Positions 10,048-64,000 of a stretch of DNA of 64,000 nt are shown here, in pieces (within the stretch, counting starts at the first letter, position 1; each line of letters opens with the position of its first letter). A model generated the notes under the pieces. It had not been told where the DNA came from. It saw only the letters and a list, made by a program, of their open reading frames with translations, and did no database searches. Location: assembly GCA_963761255.1 (NCBI GenBank), contig CAVXGH010000004.1, positions 507,204 through 571,203 on the forward strand, in the 5' to 3' direction. Both the position numbers and the translations under genes were made by a program. The stretch is from an uncultured delta proteobacterium (lineage in GTDB: Bacteria > Desulfobacterota > Binatia > Binatales > Binataceae).

Positions 10048-11115
10048 CTAGTGGCCTGTAACAGGTGAAATGGTATCAATACTGATTCGATGTGTGGGGT
10101 CGCGGTAGGTCCACTTGATGGGTTTGGGGGCGTGATTATCGTGACCGATGTAGCGCTTAAGTTTGCGCGCCAGATGCTTGACCGAGGTGAAGACTCCGCG
10201 GGCAATGACATCGCGCTCGATCTTGGCGAACCAGTTTTCTACCTGATTGAGCCAGGAGGAGTAGGTCGGGGTGTAGTGGAGATGGACTTTCGGGTGGGCG
10301 GCGAGGAATTGCCCAACCCGCTTGGTCTTGTGGGCCGAGAGATTGTCGGCAATGAGGTGAATCTCCTTGCCGCGCGGCTGATTGGCGACCAGCTCGGCGA
10401 GGAAGGCCACGAACTCCTGGCTGGTGTGACGCGCGGCGGTTTTGCCCACCACCGCGCCGCTCTTGGTGTCAAGCGCCGCGTACAGCGAAAGCGTGCCGTG
10501 GCGATAGTATTCAAAACCGTGGCGTTCCAGCCGCCCGGGCGACAAAGGCAACACCGGATCCAGCCGGTCCAGGGCTTGAATGGCGGTCTTTTCGTCTACG
10601 CAAAACACCGCCGCATGCTGCGGCGGTTTGACGTACAGTCCGATAATATCGGCTGCCTTAGTCTCAAAGTCGGGATCGTCGGAGGCCATGTAGCGTTCGA
10701 TCCGATGCGGCCTAAGCCCGGCGCGCTGCCACACCCGCGCCACCATCATGTGGCTGATGCCCAGGTGGCGGGCCAACTTGCGGCTGCTCCAGTGGGTGGA
10801 GCCATCGGGCGGAGGTCTGCGGGTCCATTCCAGAATTTTGGCTTCCAGCGCCGGGGTTCGTTTCTCCACCGCGCGTCCGCGGTAGTGCGAGTACAAGCCC
10901 GCCAGCCGCTCGGCTTCGAAACGACCCTTCCAGCGACTGATATAGTTGGGGTTGCAGCCCAGCACCTGGCGGATGGCCGAATAAGATTTTCCCTCCACCA
11001 GCAACAGGATCAGCCGCGCACGGCGCACATCCTCGGCCGGCAAGGTCCGCGAGCGCATCCTATCCCTCAGTTCCGCGCGCTCACTCGACCTCAAGCGTAA
11101 CTCCCCTTTAGGCAT
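10048..11115 (-). CDS. IS630-family DDE transposase
   Basis: 355 aa with an N-terminal HTH (GKSYSAIRQVLG). DDE-like residues lie in FCVDEKTAIQAL, IADNLSAHKT and LNQVENWFAKIE. The TAG stop is formed by the flanking TA plus the next host base. Confidence 0.9.
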   Translation of the reverse strand: MPKGELRLRSSERAELRDRMRSRTLPAEDVRRARLILLLVEGKSYSAIRQVLGCNPNYISRWKGRFEAERLAGLYSHYRGRAVEKRTPALEAKILEWTRRPPPDGSTHWSSRKLARHLGISHMMVARVWQRAGLRPHRIERYMASDDPDFETKAADIIGLYVKPPQHAAVFCVDEKTAIQALDRLDPVLPLSPGRLERHGFEYYRHGTLSLYAALDTKSGAVVGKTAARHTSQEFVAFLAELVANQPRGKEIHLIADNLSAHKTKRVGQFLAAHPKVHLHYTPTYSSWLNQVENWFAKIERDVIARGVFTSVKHLARKLKRYIGHDNHAPKPIKWTYRDPTHRISIDTISPVTGH

Positions 11116-11162
11116 GCCTCATGATACATGAAGCCCATACCAATGTCACTGTTACAGGCCAC
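10051..11162 (-). mobile_element. IS630-family insertion sequence, apparently intact
   Basis: Perfect 14-bp terminal inverted repeats GTGGCCTGTAACAG (10051-10064) and CTGTTACAGGCCAC (11149-11162). Each is flanked by TA (10049-10050 and 11163-11164), the IS630/Tc1 target duplication. A single transposase ORF lies inside. Confidence 0.9.
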
Positions 11163-11254
11163 TAACCACTGCGAAATCACGTTACCTCAACACATTAGGC
11201 GTTTCAGTGAGATGGATAGAAAACGAAGAACATTAGTGAAAGTGCCGCTAGAAT

Positions 11255-27770: not shown

Positions 27771-30386
27771 TCACCGCGTAACAGGCCTCTCCGCCTTCGC
27801 CGTCTCAGCTTCCATGTGTCGTGGGAACGCCTGTTCCAGGTAGTGGACCTGGTAGAAGTACCATTGGATGAGCTGCTGCTTTCGCTGTCGTATCTCTTCC
27901 GGCGGTTGCGTGGCAACGATGTTGTTTCGCTCGTCAGGATCGGTAGTCAGATCAAATAAATAGCTAAGGTCTTTGCTCGGCAGGTATACGAACTTCTCAG
28001 GTCCAGGTCCTTCAACCATGCCTAATTTGAAGTCACCATAAACATTGCTCATGTATACGGGGTCATCCGGCTGTTTCGAGAACGCCACTTCAGACTGTCC
28101 AAGCTGTTCATCATCGCCGAGCAAATAGAGCAGCGTCGCCGGCACGTCCTTCATCGAAATGCGTCCATAGAAGTCCTGCCGTTGCGGAAACAGGGAGGAG
28201 CTGTAGAGCAGCATCGGAATACGCACCGACTGGTTGTACAAGTAATTGCCATGGAGCTGATCGCCGGTGTGCTCGTTGAACGCCTCGCCATGGTCGCCGA
28301 AGATCATGACCAGTGGATGGCGGCCGGTTTTCTCGAGGCCCGCGATCAAGTCGCCGACGGCGGCGTCGGATGAGTAGATACAATTGTCGTACTGATCGAT
28401 GACATTGTGCTCGGGAAACTTTTTGGTCGTCGCCCAGTAGGGGTGATGCGCTCCGGCGAACCAGATTACCGCCGCGACGGGCTCCGTCCGCGCGCCATAC
28501 CAATGGAGGAAGTCATCGACCAGGACGGTGTCGCTGCCCATGGTACCTGGTGGTCTAGCTGCTGATCCATAGCTGGAAAGCAGGTCCGCCGCACCTACCG
28601 TTTTAACCAGGGCGGGTCCCATTGCGGCTTTCATAAGAGGCGCGAAATGATCCGATTCGGGGTTCGCATTGACACCCAGGTAGCCCTTGTAGCCGCGTCC
28701 AGCCAGAATACCCCAAAAGGTCGGCCGTCCCAGAACCCTATCCGGATTGTAGTTCACTGCTTCGATACGAGGATCGGGGTAAGTACCGAGAGTGAAGGCC
28801 TCCATCGTTTTAGCGCTCCTGGGTTGTGCGACATAAACATTGGAGAACACCATCGCATGCTGGGAGAGGCGAGTGAGGTTCGGCGTTGTCTCGCGAGGAT
28901 AGCCATAGAGTGACACATCAGCTCTGCGCACGGACTCCAGCACGACAAAGATAACGTCCTGGCCAGCAGCGGCGCCATGATAGTGTAGGTACGCGGATGG
29001 AACCGGGCGCGCCGGCGGATAATGGAAGCTCGCGAAGTCGGCCGGGGCTATCTTCGGATCCAGCTCACCGCTCAAATCCGGACTGGTTTGCAGCGCCAGG
29101 ACGATGGGCGAGGAAACCGAAGGATCATAGGCATAGGGTGCGCGCAGAGGGCTCAAAGCGCCCAGTGACCACACCGCGGATATAGAGGCGAATGCTATCA
29201 CCATGCGCTTCGGAATTTGGCGGCGCCGCAACGACCGAAAGGCGAAGACGCAAAACATCAGCACCGCCACGCCGGCCAGCCCCGCAACCATCGCCGGTGC
29301 GCGGGTGAGGTAGTAGTGCAAGCTATCGGGGGTGGGAGATTCGTACGCGAGCAGAATCAGGCTCCCATCCACATAGGCGCCCCATTCCCAGAAGACGTAG
29401 GCGCAGAGGATTTCGAAGAGCGCCAGAATTATCAGAGCCACTGACATCGTGAGCTCAATAACTGCTAGCAGCACGCGCAACGGGCGCGTCCATTGACTTC
29501 GGGCGCATAGGTTGTCGATTCCCATGACGATCAGGATAGCTACCAAAGCTAGCAGTCCGATCGCGACAGTCTCAGCGGGAGCTGCTCCCAGGTCTGACAA
29601 CGAGACATGCCGGCCGTAGCGAATCGCGCTGGTCAGAATCGCGAAGACCTTGGCACCAAACATGGTGACGAGAAATGCCGTGAACGCTGCTGCCGTGGCC
29701 ACGCGTGCCCATGTCACGAACGCCAGGGCATAGGGTTGCAGGATATCAACATAGAGCTCGATGACCGACAAAAGGCCCGCCCATCGCAAGACCTCGAACA
29801 GCGCCACCACGGCGGTCGAAAGTACCAGGGAGAGGATGGCGGCTTGAAGCAAAGCGCCGATTCCGGACGCCACGCGGCGACGTGCGGTGTTTACCATCAA
29901 CATGAAATAGGGATCGCCGCCCGTGACCCTAGCGACCAGCGTATCGCCTTCCAGAGCGAGCACCGAGGCGTGGAGAGGGAGGACGGTATGGCCAAAGTCC
30001 CGCGCCAGACTGATTGCGCCAAATCGGAATAGGTCGAGGGTGTAGCGGCCTCGATCCACAGCTACATCGCGAAGCGCTACAACTCCGGGTTCCTCGAGGG
30101 GATCGAATCGCAGCTGATAGATAGACCTCCAGGTCGGCAGCGTGATCTGGTAATTCTGAAACGCGTTTAATGGTTTGCGATCGTAATCAAAGCAGGTCTT
30201 CTCCGCCTCTGAGAATCCGCTCCCGGTGTTATAGTAGAAACATGGAGTGAGATAGGGTCCGGGAGCTGCTTCCCGTACGGCGATCTGGAAGGAGACCGTG
30301 GTGGGGGCGCCGAAGCGCTGGACGAATAGAATCAGACCGCACGCGATCATCGATAGGTAGATAAGCCGGCGCCAGAGTGTAGTCAT
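27771..30386 (-). CDS. LtaS/OpgB-type alkaline-phosphatase-superfamily transferase with N-terminal novel module
   Basis: One module copy (nt 29787-30386), then about 5 TM helices, then the catalytic domain VIFVVLESVRRADVSLYGYPRETTPNL...QPRSAKTMEAF...GDHGEAF. A Thr lies at the nucleophile position (KT) and there is no C/S-x-P/A-x-R sulfatase motif. The start was moved to the internal ATG (MTTLWRRL). Confidence 0.8.
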   Translation of the reverse strand: MTTLWRRLIYLSMIACGLILFVQRFGAPTTVSFQIAVREAAPGPYLTPCFYYNTGSGFSEAEKTCFDYDRKPLNAFQNYQITLPTWRSIYQLRFDPLEEPGVVALRDVAVDRGRYTLDLFRFGAISLARDFGHTVLPLHASVLALEGDTLVARVTGGDPYFMLMVNTARRRVASGIGALLQAAILSLVLSTAVVALFEVLRWAGLLSVIELYVDILQPYALAFVTWARVATAAAFTAFLVTMFGAKVFAILTSAIRYGRHVSLSDLGAAPAETVAIGLLALVAILIVMGIDNLCARSQWTRPLRVLLAVIELTMSVALIILALFEILCAYVFWEWGAYVDGSLILLAYESPTPDSLHYYLTRAPAMVAGLAGVAVLMFCVFAFRSLRRRQIPKRMVIAFASISAVWSLGALSPLRAPYAYDPSVSSPIVLALQTSPDLSGELDPKIAPADFASFHYPPARPVPSAYLHYHGAAAGQDVIFVVLESVRRADVSLYGYPRETTPNLTRLSQHAMVFSNVYVAQPRSAKTMEAFTLGTYPDPRIEAVNYNPDRVLGRPTFWGILAGRGYKGYLGVNANPESDHFAPLMKAAMGPALVKTVGAADLLSSYGSAARPPGTMGSDTVLVDDFLHWYGARTEPVAAVIWFAGAHHPYWATTKKFPEHNVIDQYDNCIYSSDAAVGDLIAGLEKTGRHPLVMIFGDHGEAFNEHTGDQLHGNYLYNQSVRIPMLLYSSSLFPQRQDFYGRISMKDVPATLLYLLGDDEQLGQSEVAFSKQPDDPVYMSNVYGDFKLGMVEGPGPEKFVYLPSKDLSYLFDLTTDPDERNNIVATQPPEEIRQRKQQLIQWYFYQVHYLEQAFPRHMEAETAKAERPVTR

Positions 30387-30435
30387 CGATCTGGACTCAC
30401 TCACGAAGAGCCCTGCGTTTCGATCATGGCCGGGA

Positions 30436-33400
30436 TCATTGTGGAGCCTTTGCCGCACTAACGGCGAGGCGGCGAGGAAATTCCTGATCGAGGTAGTGGG
30501 TCTGGTAGAAATACCATTGAATCAGTTCTTGTTCTCGCTGCCGGATTTCCTCCGGTGAACGCGAGGGAACCAGGTTCGTTTCCTCGCCAGGATCGGTGGC
30601 GAGATCGAACAGATAGTCAAGTTTCGTGCTCGGAAAATACATGAACTTCTCCGGCGCGAGACCGTCTACCATTCCGAGCTTGAAGCCTCCATAGACATTG
30701 CTCATGTAGACGAGATCGCCCGGTTGTTTGGAGAACGCCACTTCTGATTGCCCGATCGGTTCTTGCTGACCCAGAAGATAGAAGATGGTTGCCGGGACAT
30801 CCTTCATGGAAATGCGCCCATCGAAATCCTGTCGCTCAGGAAAGACCGCCGAGTCATAGAGCATCATTGGGATGCGGACTGACTGGTTGTATAGATACCT
30901 GCCATGAAAGCGATCGCCCGCGTGTTCGCCGAATGACTCGCCGTGGTCTCCAAAGATTAGGACTAACGGATGTCGCCCGGTCTTTTCCAGCTCATCGACC
31001 AAATGACCTATGGCCGCGTCGGCCGAGTAGATGCAGTTGTCGTACTGATCGACCAGGCCATGCTCCGAGAACTTTTTCGTTGTAGCCCAGTACGGATGGT
31101 GCGCTTCGGCGAACCAGACCACCGCGGCTGCCGGTCCCTTGCGTGCCCGGTACCACTGGAGGAAGTCGTCAACCATAACTGTATCGTTACCCATGCTTCC
31201 GACTGGTTTGGCTATCTCTCCATAATGAGCCGTCAAGTACGACTGTCCAACGGTGCGGTCCAAGGCAGGTCCCGCAGCGGCACGCATAAAGGCACCGAAC
31301 CCGTCGTTCTCGACGTCGGCGTTAACACCCAGGTAGACCTTGTAGCCGTGTTGGGAGAGTATGCTCCAGAACGATGGGTGCCCGAGAATTCGATCGGCGT
31401 CCCAGGCCAAAGAGTCAAACCGAGGATCGGGGTAGGTGCCGAGCGTGAAAGACTCCATGGTCTTGCAGCTTCTCGGCTGCGAGACATAGACGTTGGAGAA
31501 CACCATCGCATGATGAGATAGGCGCTCCATATTCGGTGTGGTTTCCCGTGCATAACCATAGAGGGAGACATCAGCTCTGCGCACTGATTCCAGCACTACG
31601 AAGATCACGTCCTGTCCCGCGGCGGCGCCAAGATAATGTTGATACGCAGCGGGGACAGGGCGGGGCGGGGGCAGATGGAAGTCCGCCAGCTTTGGCGCGT
31701 CAACACTGGAGTCCAAAGCCTCGCCCAAATCATAGGAGCTCCGCTGCGCGACTACCATCGGCGAGGAAACCGCTGGGTCATAACCGTCGGGTGCGCGCAA
31801 AGGCTTAAGCGCCTCCAGCGACCAGATCGCGGCTATGGACGCGAGCGCGACCACCAAGCCTCGAGGAATTCCGCGCCGACGAAAAAACCTGAAAGAAAAG
31901 ACGCCAAACCACGCCACGGCGACTACGGCAAGCGCCACGATCGCCGCCGGAGGACGAGTAAGGTAGTAGCGCAGGCTGTCTGGAGTAGGTGAGTGGTAGG
32001 CAATCTCGATAAGGCTTCGGTCGAGATAGGAGCCCCACTCCCAGAACACATAGCAACAAAGGATTTCGAAGAGCGCCAAGAGCACCAGGACGCTCGCGAC
32101 CAGAGACTCGCACGCAAACAACAGAACCCGAAGCGGAGTTGTCCACCAACTTCTCGCGCAAAGGTCGTCCGCCCCAACGAGGAGCAAGACGACGGTCATG
32201 GCGAGCAGTCCGAGGGCAGCGCTCTCGGCCGGGGCAACTGCAAGATCGGCGAGTGAAATCGCGCGCCCGTAATGGAAGGCGCTGGTCAGTAGGGCAAAAG
32301 CCTTGCCGCCGATCATCGCAACCCAAAATGCCGCCAACGCTGCGAGGGTAACCGCGCGCGTCGCGGCGAATAACTGGGGGGTGCGCCGGCGCGCAAGACC
32401 GAGCCAGGTCTCATTGCGCTGCCACCTGCCGGTCTTACGCGCCCACTCCACCAGCGCGAACAAACCCGCCCATAGCAGCAACGAGGTCGCGATTCTCTGG
32501 AGCACTACCCGAGCACCGGGACCGGTCCTTCGATCGAACCCATCTACCAACATAAAATGCGGATCGGTGGTAGAGAGGCGGGCAACCAAGGTATCGCCTT
32601 CAATGCTGAGCTGAGTCTGGTGCAGCGGGTAAAGAGTATGTCCGAATTCTTTCGCAAGATTGATCTCGGCGAACCGATAGCGGCCAATCCTGAGATTACG
32701 CAGCGCGATGACTCCCGGTTCTGCGAGCGGATCGAAGCGGAGTTGATGGACCGTCCGGTGAGTCGGAAGCGTTATTTGGTACCTTTGAAATCCCGCCTGC
32801 AAACCCTGGTGGTAATCGAAGCAGACAGTTTCGGTCTCGGAGAAACCGTGTCCGGTGTCGTAAAAGAAACACGGGTAGAAGCCGCGTCCCCAGATATCCG
32901 CCTCTCGGATGGCAATCTCAAATGACACCGTCGTCGGGGTTCTGAGTTGCTCAACCAGCAGCACCATGCTGTAGACCGCGAGCAACACCAAAAGCCACGG
33001 GATAGACCCACGCATCCAGAGGACGGTCCCCCGTATTGAGGCGGCCAGCGACGGATCGTGGCGTACCCAAACCACGCCATCGCGCAGGTGCGCCCACAAT
33101 TTGGTTCTGGGAACCAGGGTCCACAAAACTGCCGCGATGAAACATATGAGAAGCGCGATGATCTCAGCGCGGAGGATAGCGCCGATATCGAGAGCAGTCT
33201 GTCGATCAAGCTGATCTGACAACATGAAGTACGCATCAGCGGTCGACAGCCGAGCGACAAGGCTTTCTCCTTCAAGACTGAGCGGCGAGTCGTGGAGTGG
33301 ATAGAGGGAGTGTCCGAACTCTCGCTTAAGATCGACCACTGTTCGTCGGTAGCTTGCGGGAGTAAACCGGGCGCGTGACCTGCCCATCGCGAGACTACGA

Positions 33401-33816
33401 AGAGCTATGGTCCCCGGCTCTCGCAAAGGGGCAAATCGCAAACGCAAAACCGGCCAGCGCGTTGGCAGGATGACCAGGTAGTCCTGGAACTGATTCGGCG
33501 AGGGGGGACCGTATCTGAAGCAGGTCTTTTCGGCTTCCGAGAATCCATGCCCGGTGTCGAAGTAAAAGCATCCGCGCAAATTGCCGCCGGGGGTCGCGTC
33601 ACGCACTGCGAGTTGGAACGAGACTGTGGTCACCGCCAGGAAGCGCTGGAGGAACAGGATCAGAACGCAGAGGACTACCGAGGCAGGGAGCAAACCAAGC
33701 GCGAAACACGGAAGCCGGAACTCAGGCCGTGCAATTCCCCAACGTGGCGCGGCGAGGGGTTCCCCCACCTGATTGCTGAAGCGCCGAAAAAAACTGCGCA
33801 ATCGGAATTCCCCCAT
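30436..33816 (-). CDS. LtaS/OpgB-type transferase with two N-terminal copies of the novel module
   Basis: Module copies at nt 33115-33711 and 32443-33006, then TM helices, then a catalytic domain nearly identical in motifs to the downstream paralog (VIFVVLESVRRADVSLYGYARETTPNM...QPRSCKTMESF...GDHGESF). Confidence 0.8.
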   Translation of the reverse strand: MGEFRLRSFFRRFSNQVGEPLAAPRWGIARPEFRLPCFALGLLPASVVLCVLILFLQRFLAVTTVSFQLAVRDATPGGNLRGCFYFDTGHGFSEAEKTCFRYGPPSPNQFQDYLVILPTRWPVLRLRFAPLREPGTIALRSLAMGRSRARFTPASYRRTVVDLKREFGHSLYPLHDSPLSLEGESLVARLSTADAYFMLSDQLDRQTALDIGAILRAEIIALLICFIAAVLWTLVPRTKLWAHLRDGVVWVRHDPSLAASIRGTVLWMRGSIPWLLVLLAVYSMVLLVEQLRTPTTVSFEIAIREADIWGRGFYPCFFYDTGHGFSETETVCFDYHQGLQAGFQRYQITLPTHRTVHQLRFDPLAEPGVIALRNLRIGRYRFAEINLAKEFGHTLYPLHQTQLSIEGDTLVARLSTTDPHFMLVDGFDRRTGPGARVVLQRIATSLLLWAGLFALVEWARKTGRWQRNETWLGLARRRTPQLFAATRAVTLAALAAFWVAMIGGKAFALLTSAFHYGRAISLADLAVAPAESAALGLLAMTVVLLLVGADDLCARSWWTTPLRVLLFACESLVASVLVLLALFEILCCYVFWEWGSYLDRSLIEIAYHSPTPDSLRYYLTRPPAAIVALAVVAVAWFGVFSFRFFRRRGIPRGLVVALASIAAIWSLEALKPLRAPDGYDPAVSSPMVVAQRSSYDLGEALDSSVDAPKLADFHLPPPRPVPAAYQHYLGAAAGQDVIFVVLESVRRADVSLYGYARETTPNMERLSHHAMVFSNVYVSQPRSCKTMESFTLGTYPDPRFDSLAWDADRILGHPSFWSILSQHGYKVYLGVNADVENDGFGAFMRAAAGPALDRTVGQSYLTAHYGEIAKPVGSMGNDTVMVDDFLQWYRARKGPAAAVVWFAEAHHPYWATTKKFSEHGLVDQYDNCIYSADAAIGHLVDELEKTGRHPLVLIFGDHGESFGEHAGDRFHGRYLYNQSVRIPMMLYDSAVFPERQDFDGRISMKDVPATIFYLLGQQEPIGQSEVAFSKQPGDLVYMSNVYGGFKLGMVDGLAPEKFMYFPSTKLDYLFDLATDPGEETNLVPSRSPEEIRQREQELIQWYFYQTHYLDQEFPRRLAVSAAKAPQ

Positions 33817-58234: not shown

Positions 58235-58423
58235 CTAACGAACAACGGGCGTATTCATTGCCTCGCCGGCGCGAGCAAGCCTCAGCAGCAGATGACTCAA
58301 AAGCCGATTCTGTCGAGGCGATCGCCTCTCTCGGAAGGAGAGCTCGCGCCATCCGATGGCGCGGATGAGGGTCCTTTCGAAACTACGATTCTTCTATCTG
58401 GCCCATGCCTTCTTCTCGCGCTT

Positions 58424-58575
58424 GTCATCCTCAGCAAGGCCGCCGAGTCGCCAAGCTCGCGTGTCGCGAGCGTCTCCAGAAAGGATCTACGCGCAGCGAT
58501 TCGACCGCGAGGCGCGTCCGAGCGGTCGCTCTGAATCCGGCGAAGGGCCTACGCGCGGCGATTCTCTTGAGCCCT
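58424..58575. repeat. REP/MITE-like GC-rich palindromic element (degenerate)
   Basis: GTCATCCTCAGCAAGG...GAAAGGATCTACGCGC...GCTCTGAATCCGG...GGCGATTCTCTTGAGC. It shares the GTCAT(C/T)C / GA(A/T)TGAC-type arms with the elements at 61754-61936. Confidence 0.3.
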
Positions 58576-58616
58576 CCACTCGGCGTATAATCGATCCTGC
58601 ATAAGGGATTAATTAT

Positions 58617-59198
58617 ATGAAAGAATTCACCCCCACCGAGGCCGCAGCAATCATCGATCTGCCGGTGCGTTTCGTTCAGAAGGCAATCGATGAAGGCCCT
58701 CTTGGCGCGGCGCGAAACCGTAAAGGTCGCGCTTTGGATCTCGAAGATCTCGTCTTCCTCTATCTGATTGGCCGGCTAGATTCAGGATTCGTCAGGCTGA
58801 CCTCCGCGGCAAAGCGACAGCTCCGAAAGAAGCTCGGCGAGTCGCTTCGCGCGAGTACTGCTCTCGACATTGGCGGATGCGTCTTCCAGGTTAAGTCCGC
58901 GTTCCGCACGATCCGGACGCGGCTCGCGAAACTTCAGACAGCCAAGCGCAAGGTGGTTTCAGATCCAGAAATCCGCGGCGGCCTGCCAGTCATCAAAGGC
59001 ACCAGGATCGGCGTCTACGAAATCGCCGCGATGCTTGAACAGGAGCCAAATGAGGCCGAATTCCTCGAGGAGTATCCCTCTCTCCAAGCACAGGACCTCG
59101 AAATCGCGAAGATCTACTCCGCCGCATATCCGCGTCGCGGCCGCCCTCCGCGTCATCCGTGGCACATCGCGCAGAGGCCGCGCGAAGTTGCGGCGTGA
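58617..59198 (+). CDS. DUF433 domain protein with N-terminal HTH (antitoxin-like)
   Basis: The C-terminal VSDPEIRGGLPVIKGTRIGVYEIAAML...EYPSLQAQDLEIA is the DUF433 signature. Confidence 0.75.
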   Translation: MKEFTPTEAAAIIDLPVRFVQKAIDEGPLGAARNRKGRALDLEDLVFLYLIGRLDSGFVRLTSAAKRQLRKKLGESLRASTALDIGGCVFQVKSAFRTIRTRLAKLQTAKRKVVSDPEIRGGLPVIKGTRIGVYEIAAMLEQEPNEAEFLEEYPSLQAQDLEIAKIYSAAYPRRGRPPRHPWHIAQRPREVAA

Positions 59199-59299
59199 AA
59201 TTTCTCATCGATGAGTGTTGCGCCAAAAGCCTGGTGCGGATTGCACAGTCGCACACGAACTTCAGCGCAGCTCTTCTCACATTTGAGTCTCGTTGTTAA
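59195..59299 (+). pseudogene. truncated DUF5615 (Mut7-C/PIN-like toxin-like) gene
   Basis: GTGA overlap with the DUF433 stop. VKFLIDECCAKSLVRIAQ matches the MKFLIDE.. N-terminus of DUF5615 partners, but the ORF ends after 34 codons where the AT-richer insert begins. Confidence 0.45.
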
Positions 59300-59339
59300 T
59301 AATTATTGCCAGGTCAAAACAAAAGGGCATCTCCGCAAA

Positions 59340-60329
59340 ATGGCTGTAGAAATAGCACCACGCAACCCGACCCGTCACCGCTACTCGGTGAGCCTCATAC
59401 AGCAAAACCGGTTTCAATTTTATAGTCTAACAATGCCGACCGACGTGCTGGCGCGAACGGCGTTCGTTACGACCCGTGACGAAGATCCCCAGAAGGGATT
59501 TCAACGAATTCTTGACAAGAAGCGAGCGCAAGAGATCGCAGATTATATTGACAACTCGAAGAACAGTATTCCGAGCGCGATAGTGCTTTCGGCGCAAGCC
59601 GATGCTGAGCTCAGATATGATCGAAAAAACAAGACCATCGATTTTCTGGATACCCCACGCGCGTTTCTGATACTCGATGGTCAACATCGCGTGTACGGAT
59701 TCTCTCTCGCGAAGACGGTACTGCGAGTTCCGGTCGTTATCTACAACAATCTGGATAGGACAGAAGAGTCGCGGTTATTCATTGACATTAATACTAAGCA
59801 ACGGCCGGTGCCGAATGAACTTCTCCTTGACATAAAGAGCCTAGCGGAATACGAAAACGACGCCGAGCAGCTTCTTCGTGACACTTTTGACAGATTTTCT
59901 GCTGATCCCAAGAGCCCACTGTTGGGATTGCTTAGTCCCGCGTCAAAAGTACCCGGAAAGCTCACGCGCGTATCGTTCAATGCCGCCTTCAAGCCTCTCA
60001 TTCCTACATTCGGCGAGGCCGATACAGAAATGATATTTCTAACCACTCGGAACTATCTAGAGGCGTTCGCAGTCGGTCTGGAATCCATGGCGGCCCGCAA
60101 AAGCTTGGTAAATCCAATCACTTTTCGCGCGATAATGTCCCTCTTCCCTGAAGTCGCGCAGCGGGTCAAAGACCGATTCGCAGCGACTTATACAACGGAA
60201 AACTTTTCTGCTGTCCTAGCCCCAATTTTTGGCAAGGTTAAGGGATCGACGTTCTTGAAGCCTGGGTCCAGCGTTAGATCATTGCATGATGTTTTGTTCA
60301 ATCTCTTCACGAAGTCGTTCACTCTCTAG
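59340..60329 (+). CDS. DGQHR-domain protein (DndB/DpdB-like, ParB/Srx superfamily)
   Basis: Literal motif FLILDGQHRVYGF (DGQHR at nt 59676-59690) plus RLFIDINTKQRPVPNELLLDI. 329 aa from the ATG at 59340; the upstream part of the tracked ORF crosses the truncated gene. Confidence 0.8.
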   Translation: MAVEIAPRNPTRHRYSVSLIQQNRFQFYSLTMPTDVLARTAFVTTRDEDPQKGFQRILDKKRAQEIADYIDNSKNSIPSAIVLSAQADAELRYDRKNKTIDFLDTPRAFLILDGQHRVYGFSLAKTVLRVPVVIYNNLDRTEESRLFIDINTKQRPVPNELLLDIKSLAEYENDAEQLLRDTFDRFSADPKSPLLGLLSPASKVPGKLTRVSFNAAFKPLIPTFGEADTEMIFLTTRNYLEAFAVGLESMAARKSLVNPITFRAIMSLFPEVAQRVKDRFAATYTTENFSAVLAPIFGKVKGSTFLKPGSSVRSLHDVLFNLFTKSFTL

Positions 60330-60336
60330 AATCCCG

Positions 60337-61311
60337 ATGCCAGTCATCGCTGACGCGTTAAGACCGTTTTGGGCTGCAAATATAAACGCCGTGAATGGCC
60401 GACCAGAATTTGGTCTTCAGGATTGGTTCACTCTTCGCGAGTATCAAGTACTCCAACCGCTTCAGCCAAACAGCGCAACAATAGTAATTTCGGACGCAAC
60501 GAAATTCTTGCGCGCTCTGGCGTTCGACTACAATCGAATGTCGACAGCGGCATTCGAGACGATGTCGGTAATCACGCGCAGTCCCGTATTCCCGAACTCG
60601 ACTGCTTGGCTTCTAATTCAAACCTACTATGCGGCATTTTTCGCGGCGCAGGCGTTAATGAGGGTTCTAGGAGTCAGCTATACGCAGATAGATACTGTGA
60701 CCGCGAGAGACGTAGACCGCGTTTCGCAAATATACGGTATGAAGGGCGCCCACTCTTTTGCAGCTGGAAACTATCGATGTTCATACGTGCTGGGGCCCTA
60801 CGGGGATCAACTTGTCTGCGATTCTTCTCGAGGTCAAGGCTCTGGCGTACATGAGGCGATGTGGATTGGATTTCTAGCCGTTATCAAAAAGCTAAGCAGG
60901 GACATTCTCGCCTCGAATCAAAACCAGTATCAGGAAGTGTCCCTAAAACTCGACGAACTTGCCGCCGCACTGTCATCTGGAACTCGGCAGAATGGCGGGT
61001 GGCTCTCTTACATGCGAAACATGATCAACTACAGACATTCTTTTGGTTGCTGGCATCCGTACCGAGCATCTCGTCGGCAAGCCGACGCGTTATTTGCACG
61101 ACTGCGTGGAAATGCTTGGACGAGAGATCCAATGGACATTTCGTTAGGCCCTCCCAGGTTCGACTTCGAAGAGGTCGAGTTTTTTCAGCGCATTTGCCAA
61201 TTTCTAGTAGGAATGTGCAGAACGATTACCGAAGACCTGGAAAATCGCTGCCCGGCCGGGAAATCCTTTCTGAACGGCGGCGCAATGACGGTACTAAGCC
61301 GAGCCGCGTGA
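60337..61311 (+). CDS. hypothetical helical protein, possible HEPN-like effector
   Basis: The ATG lies 7 nt after the DGQHR stop; 324 aa. Helix AWLLIQTYYAAFFAAQALMRVLG, and later LSYMRNMINYRHSF (R-x6-H at nt 61015-61038). No family recognised by eye. Confidence 0.65.
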   Translation: MPVIADALRPFWAANINAVNGRPEFGLQDWFTLREYQVLQPLQPNSATIVISDATKFLRALAFDYNRMSTAAFETMSVITRSPVFPNSTAWLLIQTYYAAFFAAQALMRVLGVSYTQIDTVTARDVDRVSQIYGMKGAHSFAAGNYRCSYVLGPYGDQLVCDSSRGQGSGVHEAMWIGFLAVIKKLSRDILASNQNQYQEVSLKLDELAAALSSGTRQNGGWLSYMRNMINYRHSFGCWHPYRASRRQADALFARLRGNAWTRDPMDISLGPPRFDFEEVEFFQRICQFLVGMCRTITEDLENRCPAGKSFLNGGAMTVLSRAA

Positions 61312-61560
61312 CGGCCGGCGAAAACCTACCACAAACTCGCGATGCGTTCCCGTGGGGAAGCATCGCGAAAACGTTCTTCAGAAACAAATTGATTCAGGTC
61401 TGACGGTAAGTCACAATATTTGTACAGGGCAGCGCGCCCGAGTTATTCGAGGAGGTCATCGATAGCGGCATAGAAAGACACCCTCACTCTTGTCTCTCCC
61501 ACGTAAGACGCAGGAGAGATGATGAAGAAGCGGCGTTTTTCGTCCATAATTACCGAGAGT

Positions 61561-61722
61561 AGCGCCAGACTCGCGCATCGCGCGAGTTAACGAGGTGGAA
61601 GCTTATCGAAAGATTCGGCGGATGGCTTCCCGGTTCCACAATCGTCAGAGTCGGACAAACCGCGCGGGTGACCGCACGACAAATCCCGGCTCAAGTGGGT
61701 GAAGCGGAGTGGCTTCACATCA
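61561..61722 (+). ncRNA. glmS ribozyme: glmS ribozyme (GlcN6P-activated self-cleaving riboswitch)
   Basis: Near-consensus core read directly: A|GCGCCAGA, P1 hairpin CTCGCGC-atc-GCGCGAG, TTAACGAGG, TGGAAGC, TTATCGAAAGATTCGGCGGATG, GCTTCCCGGTT, GCGGGTGACCGC, ACGACAAA, GGGTGAAGCGGAGTGGCTTCAC. The predicted cleavage site lies between A61561 and G61562. Same strand as, and upstream of, glmS. Confidence 0.88.
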
Positions 61723-61753
61723 GGAATTTCTAAACTCTCCCCCACACATAATC

Positions 61754-61936
61754 GTCATTCGAACGTGCGAGGCTCCGGAACGTCGCTTCGCGGAGATTCT
61801 TCGCGCGCGGCGGCAGGGTCCGCTTAGAATGACAGGGTAGGAAATTTGGCGTCATCTCAAGCCGACGCGCAACCGTACCGCATCGGGGAACGTCCTTGAG
61901 TGCGGTGCATCGAGTGCGCGGGGCGCTCGGGATGAC
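61754..61936. repeat. two REP-like imperfect palindromic units in the glmS leader
   Basis: Unit 1 runs from GTCATTCgaacg (61754) to cttaGAATGAC (61833). Unit 2 runs from GTCATCTCAAGCCGACGCGC (61851) to GCGCGGGGCGCTCGGGATGAC (61936). Confidence 0.4.
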
Positions 61937-62014
61937 AAAGAAGAGAGCATCGGAGTGCGTGGAGCGCCCGCCACCGTCGGGCGCGGACGCCCTCCGGCTC
62001 TCACCCGGTCGTCA

Positions 62015-62134
62015 CAGTTGTCGCGAAATCCAGGAGCGACAACTGCGCCGCCCACCCTCTCTCGCATCGCGAGAGAGGGGATTACGAAAGACGGCCTCGA
62101 CCACCTTCTTCCCCTTCCACTTCAGGGGAAGGGG
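62015..62134 (+). promoter_or_regulatory. three consecutive strong stem-loops immediately upstream of the glmS start
   Basis: CAGTTGTCGC-11 nt-GCGACAACTG (62015-62045). CCCTCTCTCGC-atc-GCGAGAGAGGG (62055-62079). CCCCTTCC-8 nt-GGAAGGGG (62111-62134). An AGGAGA RBS lies at about 62150. Confidence 0.5.
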
Positions 62135-62162
62135 CCAGGGGTTAGGTCACAGGAGAATCTGT

Positions 62163-64000
62163 ATGTGCGGAATTGTTGGATACGTAGGAAAGCAGGATGC
62201 CTATCCAATCCTCATCGGAGGATTGCAGCGGCTGGAATATCGCGGCTATGACTCCGCCGGGATCGCGACTCTCGTCGCGAACGGCGCGATGCATATTCGG
62301 CGCGCCAAGGGCAAACTCGAAAACCTCCGCGCGATGGTCGGGCAGGCGCCGCTCGGAGGGCATATCGGAATCGGACATACGCGGTGGGCCACCCATGGCA
62401 AACCGTCCGAGGAAAACGCGCATCCGCATAAGGCCGGGCCCGTCGCCGTCATCCATAACGGGATCGTCGAGAACTTCGTCGCGCTGCGCGCCGCACTCGT
62501 CGCGCGCGGCCATAAGATGAAATCGGAGACCGATACCGAGCTGATTTCGCATCTTATCGAGGAGAATCTTGGATGCGGGACCTGCGGCGCTCCCGCCGGC
62601 GATGGCTCTACCAACCTCGGCTCCAAGGGACTGACCGAGGCGGTCCGCGCCGCGGTCGGTGAGCTGCGCGGCTCGTTTTCGATCGTCGTGATGTCGGAAA
62701 GCGAGCCCGACAAGCTGGTGGCGGCCAAGACCGCCACCCCGATGGTGCTCGGCTATGGCGAAGGCGAAAACTTTATCGCGTCGGACATCCCCGCACTGCT
62801 GGAGCATACGCGGATGACGCTGGTGCTGGAGGACGGGGAGCTGGCGGAAGTGACCGCCTCGGGCATCAAAGTGATGTTATTCGATGGAACCCCGGTTACG
62901 CGGGCGCCGCGGCGGGTCGAATGGAGCTCGGCGGTGGCTACTAAAGGTGGCTATAAGCATTATTTGCGCAAGGAAATCGCCGAGCAGCCTCAAGCATGGA
63001 TCGACACGATGGCGGGGCGCGCATCGGCTAATTCGGCCTCGGTAAGCTTTGAGACCGACCTGATGCCTCCCGCCGGCGCCGAATCGATCAAGCGTATCGT
63101 GATGCTGGGGGCCGGCGCGTCGTGGATAACGGCCAATATCGGCAAATTCATCATCGAGGAGATCGCGGGTGTGCCCGTCGAGGTCGATTACGCGGGCGAG
63201 TTTCGCTATCGGCGGCCGCCGGTCGGCGAGGGCACGGTGGTCATTGCGGTGTCGCAGTCAGGCGAGACGGCGGACACGCTGGCTGCGATGGAGGAAGCGG
63301 CCTCGCGCGGGGCACATCTTATCGCGCTGACGAACACCGTGGATTCGTCGATCGCGCGGAAGGCGAATGCGCAAATATACACGCGATGCGGGCCGGAGAT
63401 CAGCGTAACCACGACTAAATGCTTCATAACTCAGATAGAGGCGTATTACCTGTATGCGATACATCTTGGCGTAAAGCTGGGTAAGCTATCGGAAGCGCAG
63501 GTATCGGAGCTGCTGAAGGCGGCCTTCGCCATTCCTTCGCAGATCGAGGCGGTCATCAGCAGTGAGAAGCACATAGAAGCAGTTGCTCGCAAATATGCTT
63601 CGGCAACGGATTTTCTCTTCCTGGGGCGCGGGATCGACTACCCGGTCGCCTTCGAAGGAGCTCTCAAGCTCAAGGAGATTTCCTACATCCATGCCGAGGG
63701 GTATTCGGCCAGCGAGATGAAGCATGGCCCGATCGCGCTCATCGATGACAAGATGCCGGTCGTCGTTCTCATCCCCAATGATCATCTGTACGAAAAGTCG
63801 CTGTCCAATATGAAGGAAGTCGAGTCGCGCAACGGCCGGATTATCGCTGTCACGGATCGAAAGTCGCCGGAGCTCGAGCGCATCGCCGCCGATATCATCG
63901 AGGTCCCAACGACGTCGCCGCTGCTGATGCCCATCCTCATGACGGTGCCACTACAGTTGATGGCCTACCACATCGCGGTGGAGCGCGGCACCGACGTTGA
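62163..64000 (+). CDS. glmS: glutamine--fructose-6-phosphate aminotransferase (partial, runs off window end)
   Basis: MCGIVGYVGKQDAYPILIGGLQRLEYRGYDSAGIA N-terminus (Ntn Cys2). SIS domains (GACGTSWxx-like GAGASWITA, SQSGETADTL) and ...MAYHIAVERGTDVD near the C-terminus. About 10 codons are missing. It is not in the supplied ORF track because no stop lies in the window. Confidence 0.93.
   Translation, partial: MCGIVGYVGKQDAYPILIGGLQRLEYRGYDSAGIATLVANGAMHIRRAKGKLENLRAMVGQAPLGGHIGIGHTRWATHGKPSEENAHPHKAGPVAVIHNGIVENFVALRAALVARGHKMKSETDTELISHLIEENLGCGTCGAPAGDGSTNLGSKGLTEAVRAAVGELRGSFSIVVMSESEPDKLVAAKTATPMVLGYGEGENFIASDIPALLEHTRMTLVLEDGELAEVTASGIKVMLFDGTPVTRAPRRVEWSSAVATKGGYKHYLRKEIAEQPQAWIDTMAGRASANSASVSFETDLMPPAGAESIKRIVMLGAGASWITANIGKFIIEEIAGVPVEVDYAGEFRYRRPPVGEGTVVIAVSQSGETADTLAAMEEAASRGAHLIALTNTVDSSIARKANAQIYTRCGPEISVTTTKCFITQIEAYYLYAIHLGVKLGKLSEAQVSELLKAAFAIPSQIEAVISSEKHIEAVARKYASATDFLFLGRGIDYPVAFEGALKLKEISYIHAEGYSASEMKHGPIALIDDKMPVVVLIPNDHLYEKSLSNMKEVESRNGRIIAVTDRKSPELERIAADIIEVPTTSPLLMPILMTVPLQLMAYHIAVERGTDV

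Follow-up and report, generated by a model that had tools for sequence, protein, structure and literature searches.

Here we identified a glmS ribozyme in the 5' untranslated region (5' UTR) of glmS from an uncultured member of the Binataceae (phylum Binatota), and we estimate at roughly three in four the probability that it senses GlcN6P and still controls this gene, the long spacer between the two being an accretion of hairpins. This reading is carried by the identity of the ribozyme, the purifying selection acting on it, the covariation of its helices, the varying copy number of the repeats in the leader and the conservation of an upstream promoter, whereas we infer that the promoter is active, that the RNA cleaves itself and what becomes of the cut message.

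A diderm genome with a glmS ribozyme ahead of glmS

An initial annotation of the window, that is, of the whole 64-kb stretch of DNA analyzed here, had read a near-consensus ribozyme core by eye and proposed a covariance-model search as a check. That core is real: the Rfam model RF00234 matched positions 61550 to 61702 on the plus strand over its full length (model positions 1 to 167) with 80.5 bits, well above the gathering score of 37 (E = 6.9e-17), and this was the sole Rfam match across the window. When the region from 61300 to 62250 was searched at a permissive E-value, nothing was found besides glmS and a minus-strand whalefall-1 match in the region of the insert at 61476 to 61552 (see below), which at 21.9 bits lies under the gathering score of 37 and was taken as chance.

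Cleavage is predicted at the junction of A61561 and G61562. The conserved elements follow one another in the canonical order, namely, AGCGCC (61561 to 61566), AACGAGG, UUAUCGA, UUCGGCGGAUG, CCCGGUU, the GUGA tetraloop and ACAAA, and all parts of the conserved core of the class (A/GCGCC, (G)ACGAGG, UUAUCGA, UCGGCGGAUG, the GUGA loop and ACAAA) are found in the window. The helices P1 (61569-61587), P2 (61597-61630), P3 (61631-61644), P4 (61648-61692) and P4.1 (61661-61678) were assigned on the plus strand, together with the P3.1 pseudoknot (61636-61639 with 61695-61698). There are two blemishes: the linker AACGAGG differs from the consensus GACGAGG in one conserved base, as it does in 7 of 13 clade members, and P4.1 contains one C-A mismatch that is common to several relatives.

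The gene itself, encoding glutamine--fructose-6-phosphate transaminase, starts on the same strand with the ATG at 62163 (MCGIVG...; TIGR01135, 719 bits, cutoff of 418) and extends to 64000, where it is still open. As the initial annotation had remarked, glmS is missing from the list of open reading frames, and this is because the frame runs past the end of the window. The encoded protein has 92 to 97% identity with GlmS from some of the related contigs. A Shine-Dalgarno sequence, GGAG (62152-62155), can be read 7 nt upstream of the ATG. The ribozyme lies in the 5' UTR of glmS, and the same layout is found in 12 related contigs, in which the ribozyme scores 74 to 93 bits and GlmS is 75 to 97% identical. 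From the end of the Rfam match to the ATG there are 460 nt, an unusually long spacer close to the roughly 440 nt estimated previously, and from G61562, the first nucleotide after the cleavage site, there are 601 nt. The 5' UTR of the window is predicted to measure about 740 nt, compared with about 309 nt for the whole 5' UTR of Bacillus subtilis glmS (PMC10810187).

The host is clearly a diderm, since Pfam searches recovered the outer-membrane genes named in the initial annotation (two PqiA proteins, a PqiB-like protein with three MlaD domains, an OmpA-family protein and FadL/TodX, all between 46584 and 51434). This confirms that a diderm carries a bona fide glmS ribozyme in front of its glmS gene. 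The accompanying claim that this is unusual finds no support, as reviews of the distribution of the class already report diderm hosts. What is new is the lineage, together with a patchy distribution inside the family; in the literature searched, we found no report of a glmS ribozyme in the Binatota and no publication mentioning both Binatota and riboswitches.

Patchy distribution within the Binataceae

The closest named relatives of the GlmS protein belong to Candidatus Binataceae, and the gene appears to be vertically inherited. The ribozyme-bearing relatives were reached only via the protein database. In four other loci of the family, glmU adjoins glmS directly and there is no ribozyme. L001, L002 and L081, the closest species-level genomes and metagenome contigs as judged by GlmS, were found to lack it. 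Two basal relatives, L169 and L170, carry the ribozyme between glmU and glmS. Applied to 160 more distant glmS loci, a custom covariance model revealed one further true ribozyme, in the Chloroflexota locus L078. Weak matches to the custom model in L009 and L112 were rejected; neither locus has an Rfam glmS match.

Purifying selection and a conserved upstream promoter

The ribozyme is under purifying selection. Its core is 88 to 99% identical to that of the window, in the same range as the first and second codon positions of glmS (88 to 98%), while identity is 48 to 82% at third codon positions and 24 to 82% in the spacer. Among the eight long-leader relatives alone, the corresponding values are 96 to 99% for the core versus 75 to 82% for third positions. 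In the ribozyme helices, 96% of cells are paired and 11 pairs show double changes, a result that none of 500 shuffles equaled, and when the helices were slid out of register as a control, pairing collapsed to 34 to 43%. Compensatory changes were seen in P1, P2, P4 and P4.1, and a P1 hairpin is formed in every locus, with at least four different sequences among the loci. P3 and P3.1 are paired in all sequences but never vary and are therefore uninformative with respect to covariation. The initial annotation had made the case for the ribozyme hinge in part on the formation of P1, P2 and P2.1; compensatory changes bear this out for P1 and P2, and the nucleotides of P2.1, like those of P2.2, are invariant among the relatives.

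A relaxed hexamer scan predicted a sigma-70-like promoter, TTGATT-N17-CACAAT, at 61389 to 61417 on the plus strand, from which transcription is predicted to start near position 61425. As a consensus match it is weak in the window (8 of 12 positions), and yet TTGATT-17-CA(C/G)AAT or a near variant occupies the equivalent position in all 13 ribozyme loci, at -95 to -102 relative to the first nucleotide after cleavage (G1) or at -173 to -189 in loci with a 75- to 90-nt insert. In the window, this insert (61476-61552, plus strand) adds about 75 nt to the 5' fragment and contains the hairpin UCUCUCC...GGAGAGA; it is shared with L161, L166 and L168 and missing in the other relatives. A stock scan of the region from 60800 to 62400 returned no promoter and a single terminator-like site within the upstream open reading frame; its threshold misses the conserved upstream site, and the relaxed scan was therefore run. 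Between G1 and the ATG of the window, the relaxed scan found no sigma-70-like site, and no promoter is conserved inside the leader across the 13 loci.

Two lineage-specific additions to the ribozyme

Directly adjoining the P3.1 strand, and outside the Rfam model, lies an additional 7-bp hairpin, here referred to as P5 (61699-61718, plus strand). Both sides have changed in five of its seven pairs, 95.7% of cells pair, and it is also present in L172 and L173. Further downstream, the motif AAACUCUCCC(C) (61732-61742, plus strand) is invariant in all 13 loci although its flanks have diverged. P5 and this motif are two lineage-specific additions to the ribozyme. The motif is complementary to Shine-Dalgarno sequences, and it may also provide the 3' strand of a putative closing helix, P0, the 5' strand of which would be GAGAGU (61555-61560, plus strand), immediately upstream of the cleavage site and complementary to ACUCUC at 61734 to 61739. 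Over 11 loci, 65 of 66 P0 cells are paired, with one compensatory change (GGAAAGU/ACUUUCC in L170) and one G-U pair (L172); the support for P0 is nevertheless thin because 36 of 500 shuffles match the observed value. Unconstrained folds of whole leaders were too noisy to argue for or against P0 in the long-leader forms. A 7-bp closing-helix candidate can be drawn for the leader of the Chloroflexota locus L078, a single sequence.

These features raise the question of whether the Binataceae ribozyme has gained an expression platform of its own, in which P0 carries a Shine-Dalgarno mimic and AAACUCUCCC, once released by cleavage, sequesters the ribosome-binding site. We consider such a platform unlikely for the lineage, and it seems a shade less likely again that, after departure of the 5' fragment, the freed motif blocks the glmS Shine-Dalgarno sequence without any involvement of RNase J. 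The invariance of the motif and the nearly complete pairing of P0 with its change in L170 speak for the idea, and four relatives with short leaders (L169, L170, L172 and L173) show the signal. There, one and the same 5- or 6-mer, particular to each lineage, recurs in the 5' flank and in the Shine-Dalgarno region (GAGAGU, AGAGUA, GAAAG and GAGGG); the duplexes between motif and start region have energies of -12.5 to -15.9 kcal/mol in L169, L173 and L172, ranking no higher than the 1.5th percentile among 135 start regions of glmS used as controls; and in L169, L170 and L172, RNAfold predicts more motif-start pairing once the 5' fragment has gone. In the window leader the signal appears to be eroded. 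Here and in most long-leader relatives, the complementarity is of the generic CUCC:GGAG(A) type (20th to 45th percentile) and the 5' flank is not a Shine-Dalgarno mimic. For the window, complementarity to the translation initiation region falls at the 20th percentile, no better than for ordinary starts, the fold predicts no motif-start pairing (0.13 expected pairs), and the motif lies 420 nt away from the Shine-Dalgarno sequence. Moreover, the covariation of P0 comes down to a single event, a level reached in 36 of 500 shuffles. If true, the ribozyme would act on translation as a switch that does not depend on RNase J; should this hold for relatives with short leaders, it would bear on how glmS ribozymes bring about repression in bacteria for which RNase J1-type decay is not established.

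Hairpins of the spacer

Among the 13 loci, the distance from the ribozyme to the ATG is 148, 160, 165, 232, 293 to 362, 442 or 460 nt, the ribozyme itself remaining constant, and the window has the longest spacer. Its extra length consists of six hairpins, about 390 nt with a summed folding energy of about -190 kcal/mol. The first two are the REP-like palindromic units that had been noted before between 61754 and 61936. Unit 1 (61754-61833, plus strand, 80 nt) has the terminal inverted repeat GTCATTCGAA/TTAGAATGAC and folds with -39 kcal/mol; unit 2 (61851-61936, plus strand, 86 nt), a diverged copy, has the inverted repeat GTCATCTCAAGC/GCTCGGGATGAC, folds with -50 kcal/mol and matches the family profile with an E-value of 1e-7. 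With this profile, nhmmer detected copies outside glmS leaders in L166 (708-768 and 4292-4341), L161 (1431-1495) and L167 (1409-1459), a handful being visible in the approximately 200 kb of related DNA surveyed. In the window outside the leader there is only a weak partial copy (58480-58567, E = 0.06), a repeat search with 12-nt seeds over all 64 kb gave no second copy of any leader element, and BLAST with the leader elements of the window returned orthologous leader positions only, plus one copy of hairpin C.

A comparison of leaders among relatives, as had been suggested in the initial annotation, showed that the number of REP-like units is 0, 1 or 2. The window, L166 and L167 each carry two; in L168, one unit is clear and another can be made out only in the alignment; each of the remaining REP-bearing relatives carries a single unit; and none was detected in L169, L170, L172 and L173. 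These observations support the view that units 1 and 2 belong to a dispersed REP-like family. REP/BIME elements are repetitive extragenic palindromes of Proteobacteria. The units described here resemble them in being imperfect palindromes of 70 to 86 nt with conserved terminal inverted repeats, in their intergenic location, in a copy number that varies between close relatives and in having extra copies at other intergenic sites. In sequence, however, the family (GTCATYCTGAGCG...GAAGGATC...) has no relationship to Escherichia coli REP.

The remaining four hairpins, all on the plus strand, were recognized from inverted repeats or folding. A long, imperfect "mid" hairpin (61943-62002, -40.5 kcal/mol) is common to L162, L163, L167 and L168 and weakly resembles the REP units; no copy was found outside glmS leaders in the DNA compared. 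This hairpin and the one at 61699 to 61718 had not been listed in the initial annotation, which had pointed out three perfect stem-loops between 62015 and 62134. The latter correspond to hairpin A (62007-62053, 10-bp perfect core), hairpin B (62055-62079, 11 bp, perfect) and hairpin C (62105-62134, 8-bp perfect core followed by CCAGGGGUUAGG). Hairpin A shows compensatory changes in 7 of 15 pairs, with 86.7% of cells paired. Within the DNA compared, A and B occur in glmS leaders only, and they look leader specific rather than like generic repeats. Hairpin C has one further copy (L165, positions 8 to 44, E = 3e-5) and may therefore represent a second dispersed family.

Stem-loops close to the 5' end and REP elements can stabilize bacterial mRNAs. 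The leader could accordingly serve in processing, with cleavage mainly severing the glmS message from upstream transcription and the hairpins shielding the 5'-OH product, such that cleavage would tune expression or even stabilize the message instead of silencing it, a role that the position of the ribozyme between glmU and glmS in L169 and L170, the six successive stable hairpins downstream of the ribozyme in the window and the stem of hairpin A, maintained through seven compensatory pairs, would all suit. We regard this as quite improbable. The hairpins are missing in short-leader relatives and vary in number elsewhere and are therefore not needed for ribozyme function; the stems of palindromic repeats are also maintained for reasons that act on the DNA, and covariation is thus no proof of a role in RNA; and even in L169 and L170 a dedicated promoter-like site is located downstream of glmU and upstream of the ribozyme. 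Least probable of all is the suggestion of the initial annotation that insertion of the repeats may have broken the link between ribozyme and gene, leaving the ribozyme to drift or to play another role while glmS is transcribed from its own promoter in the spacer, downstream of 61722: the length of the spacer, the linker substitution and the P4.1 mismatch of the window fit such a relic, and Binatota promoters are uncharacterized, so that a noncanonical internal promoter is possible, but the conservation of the core in 13 loci (far above that of third codon positions in the long-leader relatives), helix pairing maintained by compensatory changes and a sigma-70-like site that is found upstream in every locus and nowhere between G1 and the ATG of the window all argue against it.

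Proposed mechanism and relation to known systems

We therefore favor the reading in which the ribozyme still provides feedback control of glmS. Transcription would begin at the conserved sigma-70-like promoter (61389-61417), and the ribozyme, lengthened by P5, would fold and, when GlcN6P is abundant, cut itself at A61561/G61562. The cut would leave a 5'-OH on a 601-nt leader attached to the glmS message and, by analogy with B. subtilis, this end would mark the message for decay, lowering GlmS synthesis and closing a negative feedback loop. Self-cleavage followed by RNase J1-dependent decay of the 5'-OH product is the established model (PMC10810187, PMC3997798). A mode of control different from this model, as considered in the initial annotation, is so far unsupported. 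RNase J is not limited to Gram-positive bacteria, delta-proteobacteria often having RNases E/G, J and Y (PMC3997798). In this reading, the 460-nt gap is a later accretion of self-contained hairpins in one sublineage rather than part of the original design; the hairpins fold on their own and are therefore tolerated between the ribozyme and the ribosome-binding site. Against decay by this route, some 390 nt of very stable hairpins separate the ribosome-binding site from the 5'-OH end and could hinder a 5'-to-3' exonuclease.

Compared with the glmS ribozymes of B. subtilis and other Firmicutes, the Binataceae representative belongs to the same family (RF00234), with the same A/GCGCC cleavage site, the same position and strand in the 5' UTR of glmS and the same P1, P2, P3/P3.1 and P4/P4.1 with a GUGA tetraloop. 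It differs in its diderm host, in the covarying P5 and the invariant AAACUCUCCC downstream of the ribozyme and, with respect to B. subtilis, in a leader that from cleavage site to ATG alone is 601 nt long, against about 309 nt for the entire 5' UTR.

In E. coli, the glmUS operon is controlled by the small RNAs GlmY and GlmZ together with RapZ. GlmZ/RapZ control is summarized in PMC3997798. Both arrangements are diderm answers to GlcN6P feedback on glmS, with glmU upstream of glmS in E. coli, where RNA processing and accessibility of the ribosome-binding site in the glmU-glmS intergenic region set the output; in L169 and L170, the ribozyme sits in this same region. However, E. coli relies on trans-acting small RNAs and RNase E, while a cis-acting, metabolite-dependent ribozyme is found here, and Rfam detected no GlmY/GlmZ family member in the window.

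Taken together, this work widens the range of the glmS ribozyme to the Binatota, an uncultured soil phylum. The lineage shows that about 390 nt of unrelated structured RNA is tolerated in a ribozyme-controlled leader, and since one and the same family has either a plain glmU-glmS operon or a ribozyme between both genes, it is a useful natural example of how a riboswitch is gained or lost.

Results

The only match to Rfam in the whole window was RF00234, the glmS ribozyme, at 61550-61702 on the plus strand, which covered the full model at 80.5 bits (gathering score 37) and so bore out, by the scan that the initial annotation had named, its reading of a glmS ribozyme upstream of glmS. The predicted cleavage dinucleotide is A61561/G61562, within GUA/GCGCCAG. 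The glmS open reading frame begins with the ATG at 62163 (MCGIVG...), scores 719 bits against the equivalog TIGR01135 (cutoff 418) and is missing from the ORF listing because it runs past the window end. The ribozyme has AACGAGG where the consensus is GACGAGG, and P4.1 contains a C-A mismatch; both features are common to several relatives.

RF00234 was also found upstream of glmS in 12 related contigs (L161-L170, L172 and L173; 74-93 bits). Identity to the window was 88-99% in the ribozyme core (116 nt, P1 excluded), 88-98% at glmS codon positions 1 and 2, 48-82% at codon position 3 and 24-82% in the spacer. When a MAFFT alignment was scored against a structure defined on the window sequence, pairing was kept in 96% of cells and 11 pairs showed changes on both sides, a level reached by 0 of 500 shuffles; slid-partner controls lowered pairing to 34-43%. 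The compensatory changes lie in P1, P2, P4 and P4.1, while P2a, P3 and the P3.1 pseudoknot do not vary and are therefore uninformative on covariation. A clean P1 hairpin is present in all loci, built from at least four different sequences. Judged from these comparisons, the ribozyme is under selection and almost certainly functional. In the closest relative, L161 (GlmS 97%), about 80 nt are inserted in the P1 loop (L161 4140-4225); the insert is itself a stable hairpin, and RF00234 still scores 87 bits.

The closest GlmS proteins with a source name come from Candidatus Binataceae/Ca. Binatus (72-74% identity), and metagenome proteins are closer (75-97%). Two PqiA genes, a gene for a PqiB-like protein with three MlaD domains, and genes for an OmpA-family protein and a FadL/TodX outer-membrane channel lie in the window, and the host was therefore correctly described as diderm. 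That this makes the ribozyme unusual did not hold, as a diderm host for this class is not new in itself. Our literature search found no paper naming both Binatota and riboswitches.

Among these relatives, the ribozyme survey covered loci outside the Ca. Binatus clade. In a neighbour-joining GlmS tree, ribozyme-bearing glmS genes fall within the Binataceae radiation, most of them in one group; L172 stands apart, beside a named Binataceae protein. From this placement, the gene looks vertically inherited and the ribozyme patchy, through gain or repeated loss. In the nearest species-level genomes and a close metagenome contig (L001, L002 and L081; GlmS 69-72%), glmS directly follows glmU, and no ribozyme was found ahead of glmS. 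The same is true of L171 (GlmS 75%), in which glmU abuts glmS with a 10-nt gap (L171 4990-5001). L171 is sister to the ribozyme-bearing L170, which suggests a recent loss or gain. In the basal relatives L169 and L170, glmU is followed by the promoter-like site, then the ribozyme and then glmS, with site and ribozyme inside the intergenic region (L169 4614-5001; L170 4605-5001). A 158-aa gene call on the minus strand of L173 (366-842) covers the ribozyme and leader, has no family match and is probably an artefact of the unannotated RNA. Outside the family, a Chloroflexota metagenome-assembled genome (L078) has an RF00234 match of 89 bits that lies 196 nt upstream of glmS (L078 3631-4001). After this ribozyme come a small hairpin and a long tract rich in C and U that holds several CUCC/CCUC motifs; CUUUCUC, a 7-bp complement to the ribozyme 5' flank GGAGAAAG, lies downstream. 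This layout may parallel that of the Binataceae.

Measured from the end of the RF00234 match to the glmS ATG, the gap is 148 nt in L169, 160 in L170, 165 in L173 and 232 in L172 (the short-leader relatives), and 293 in L165, 298 in L161, 326 in L166, 342 in L164, 348 in L163, 352 in L162, 362 in L168, 442 in L167 and 460 in the window. The two palindromic units (61754-61833 and 61851-61936, each bounded by inverted repeats) and three near-perfect stem-loops (hairpins A, B and C: 62007-62053, 62055-62079 and 62105-62134) previously described in the window spacer are all present, and two hairpins not described before lie at 61699-61718 and 61943-62002 (the latter termed mid). The stretch 61750-62138 is therefore a series of six hairpins, each predicted to fold independently.

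Both 80- to 86-nt units are members of a single family, GTCATTyGAGCG ... CGCTCAGrATGAC. Comparison of leaders agrees with the repeats being insertions, with 0, 1 or 2 units per leader. The leaders of L166 and L167, like that of the window, have two; in L168 one unit is clear and another was recognized only in the alignment; the remaining repeat-bearing relatives have one, and none was detected in the four short-leader loci. A family profile found further copies in unrelated intergenic regions (L166 708-768, L161 1431-1495 and L167 1409-1459) and, in the window outside the leader, a partial copy with a weak match at 58480-58567. The label "REP-like" is therefore justified, copies having been surveyed across the available loci. 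Thus, the window leader is lengthened by palindromic insertions. In about 200 kb of related DNA, hairpins mid, A and B had no copy outside glmS leaders, and hairpin C had one (L165 8-44). The stem of hairpin A is kept via seven compensatory pairs, which either a function in the RNA or the way palindromes are ordinarily maintained could explain. An intergenic block upstream of a DUF433 gene is conserved in three loci (window 58300-58610, L166 560-790 and L161 1280-1500) and includes a hairpin, then GGGTGAGGGTCCTTT(A/C)GAAAATACGATTCTTCT, as well as half of a REP-like unit (TGTCATCCTGAGCG...GAAGGATCTACGCG).

A relaxed sigma-70 scan of the 13 loci found TTGATT-17-CACAAT or a near variant upstream of the ribozyme at an equivalent relative position in all 13 (predicted at 61389-61417 in the window). 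Between cleavage site and ATG, the same scan found no sigma-70-like site in the window and no positionally conserved one in the relatives. Together with the selection on the ribozyme, this indirect evidence argues against the alternative that the repeats have uncoupled ribozyme and gene. Between promoter and ribozyme lies an insert of about 75 nt (61476-61552), patchily distributed (also in L161, L166 and L168, not in L162); its hairpin arms, CUCUCCC and GGAGAGA, are similar to the downstream motif and to the sequence flanking the cleavage site on its 5' side.

The 7-bp hairpin at 61699-61718 directly follows the P3.1 strand, shows changes on both sides in 5 of 7 pairs across relatives and is found in L172 and L173 too. 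Located 14 nt beyond it, the motif AAACUCUCCC (61732-61742) is invariant in the 13 loci bar a single C-to-U change in L170. Its ACUCUC complements GAGAGU (61555-61560), which ends one base 5' of the cleavage site, and a closing helix, P0, is plausible from this complementarity: 65 of 66 cells pair (11 loci), both sides are changed in L170 (GGAAAGU/ACUUUCC) and L172 has a G-U pair. The P0 covariation amounts to one event and was matched by 36 of 500 shuffles.

Elsewhere in the window, a lower-GC block (58617-61311; 50-52% versus about 57-60%) holds three genes. One is for a DUF433 protein, one for a protein with a DGQHR domain (160 bits against TIGR03187; weakly similar to DpdB/DndB), and the third is an ORF of 341 aa for which no family matched. 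Closer relatives have variable genes between glmU (visible in L165) and the ribozyme, toxin-antitoxin-like genes and a transposase among them. Where the window has this block, upstream of the glmS promoter, the cargo in relatives is different and includes DUF433-DUF5615 pairs, HicB, Fic, RelA/SpoT-like, ParA-like, transposase and GST genes; the position has the appearance of an insertion hotspot. A complete IS630-like insertion sequence with 28-nt inverted repeats at its ends occupies 10049-11164 (its DDE_3 transposase, which has HTH domains, is encoded on the minus strand at 10048-11115). Two large adjoining paralogues of 895 and 1126 aa, each with a sulfatase domain at its end and about 70% identical in DNA over matching stretches, lie at 27771-33816 within a polysaccharide-synthesis region (RmlC, a dehydratase, several glycosyltransferases and an RgpF-domain protein).

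Discussion

In the accepted mechanism, RNase J1 degrades the 5'-OH product that self-cleavage leaves (PMC10810187; PMC3997798). RNase J also occurs beyond Gram-positive bacteria, and delta-proteobacteria often have RNases E/G, J and Y (PMC3997798). Control of this glmS may therefore follow the RNase J1 model or depart from it, as the initial annotation proposed. The predicted untranslated region of the window is about 740 nt, whereas that of Bacillus subtilis glmS is about 309 nt (calculated from a 499-bp template of which 190 bp are ORF; PMC10810187).

The AAACUCUCCC motif also complements Shine-Dalgarno sequences. In the four short-leader relatives, a lineage-specific 5- to 6-mer occurs both in the 5' flank and in the Shine-Dalgarno region; motif-to-start-region duplexes in L169, L173 and L172 are stronger than those with nearly every one of the 135 glmS start regions used as controls, and folding predicts more such pairing after removal of the 5' fragment in L169, L170 and L172. 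These signals suggest that cleavage might release an anti-Shine-Dalgarno element in these relatives. In the window and most long-leader relatives, flank sharing, duplex strength and predicted pairing were not above background, and we therefore do not take this idea as the explanation for the window.

In summary, the window element is a real glmS ribozyme in a new lineage and carries a lineage-specific 3' extension, and there is a modest chance that the short-leader relatives use a new expression-platform mechanism.
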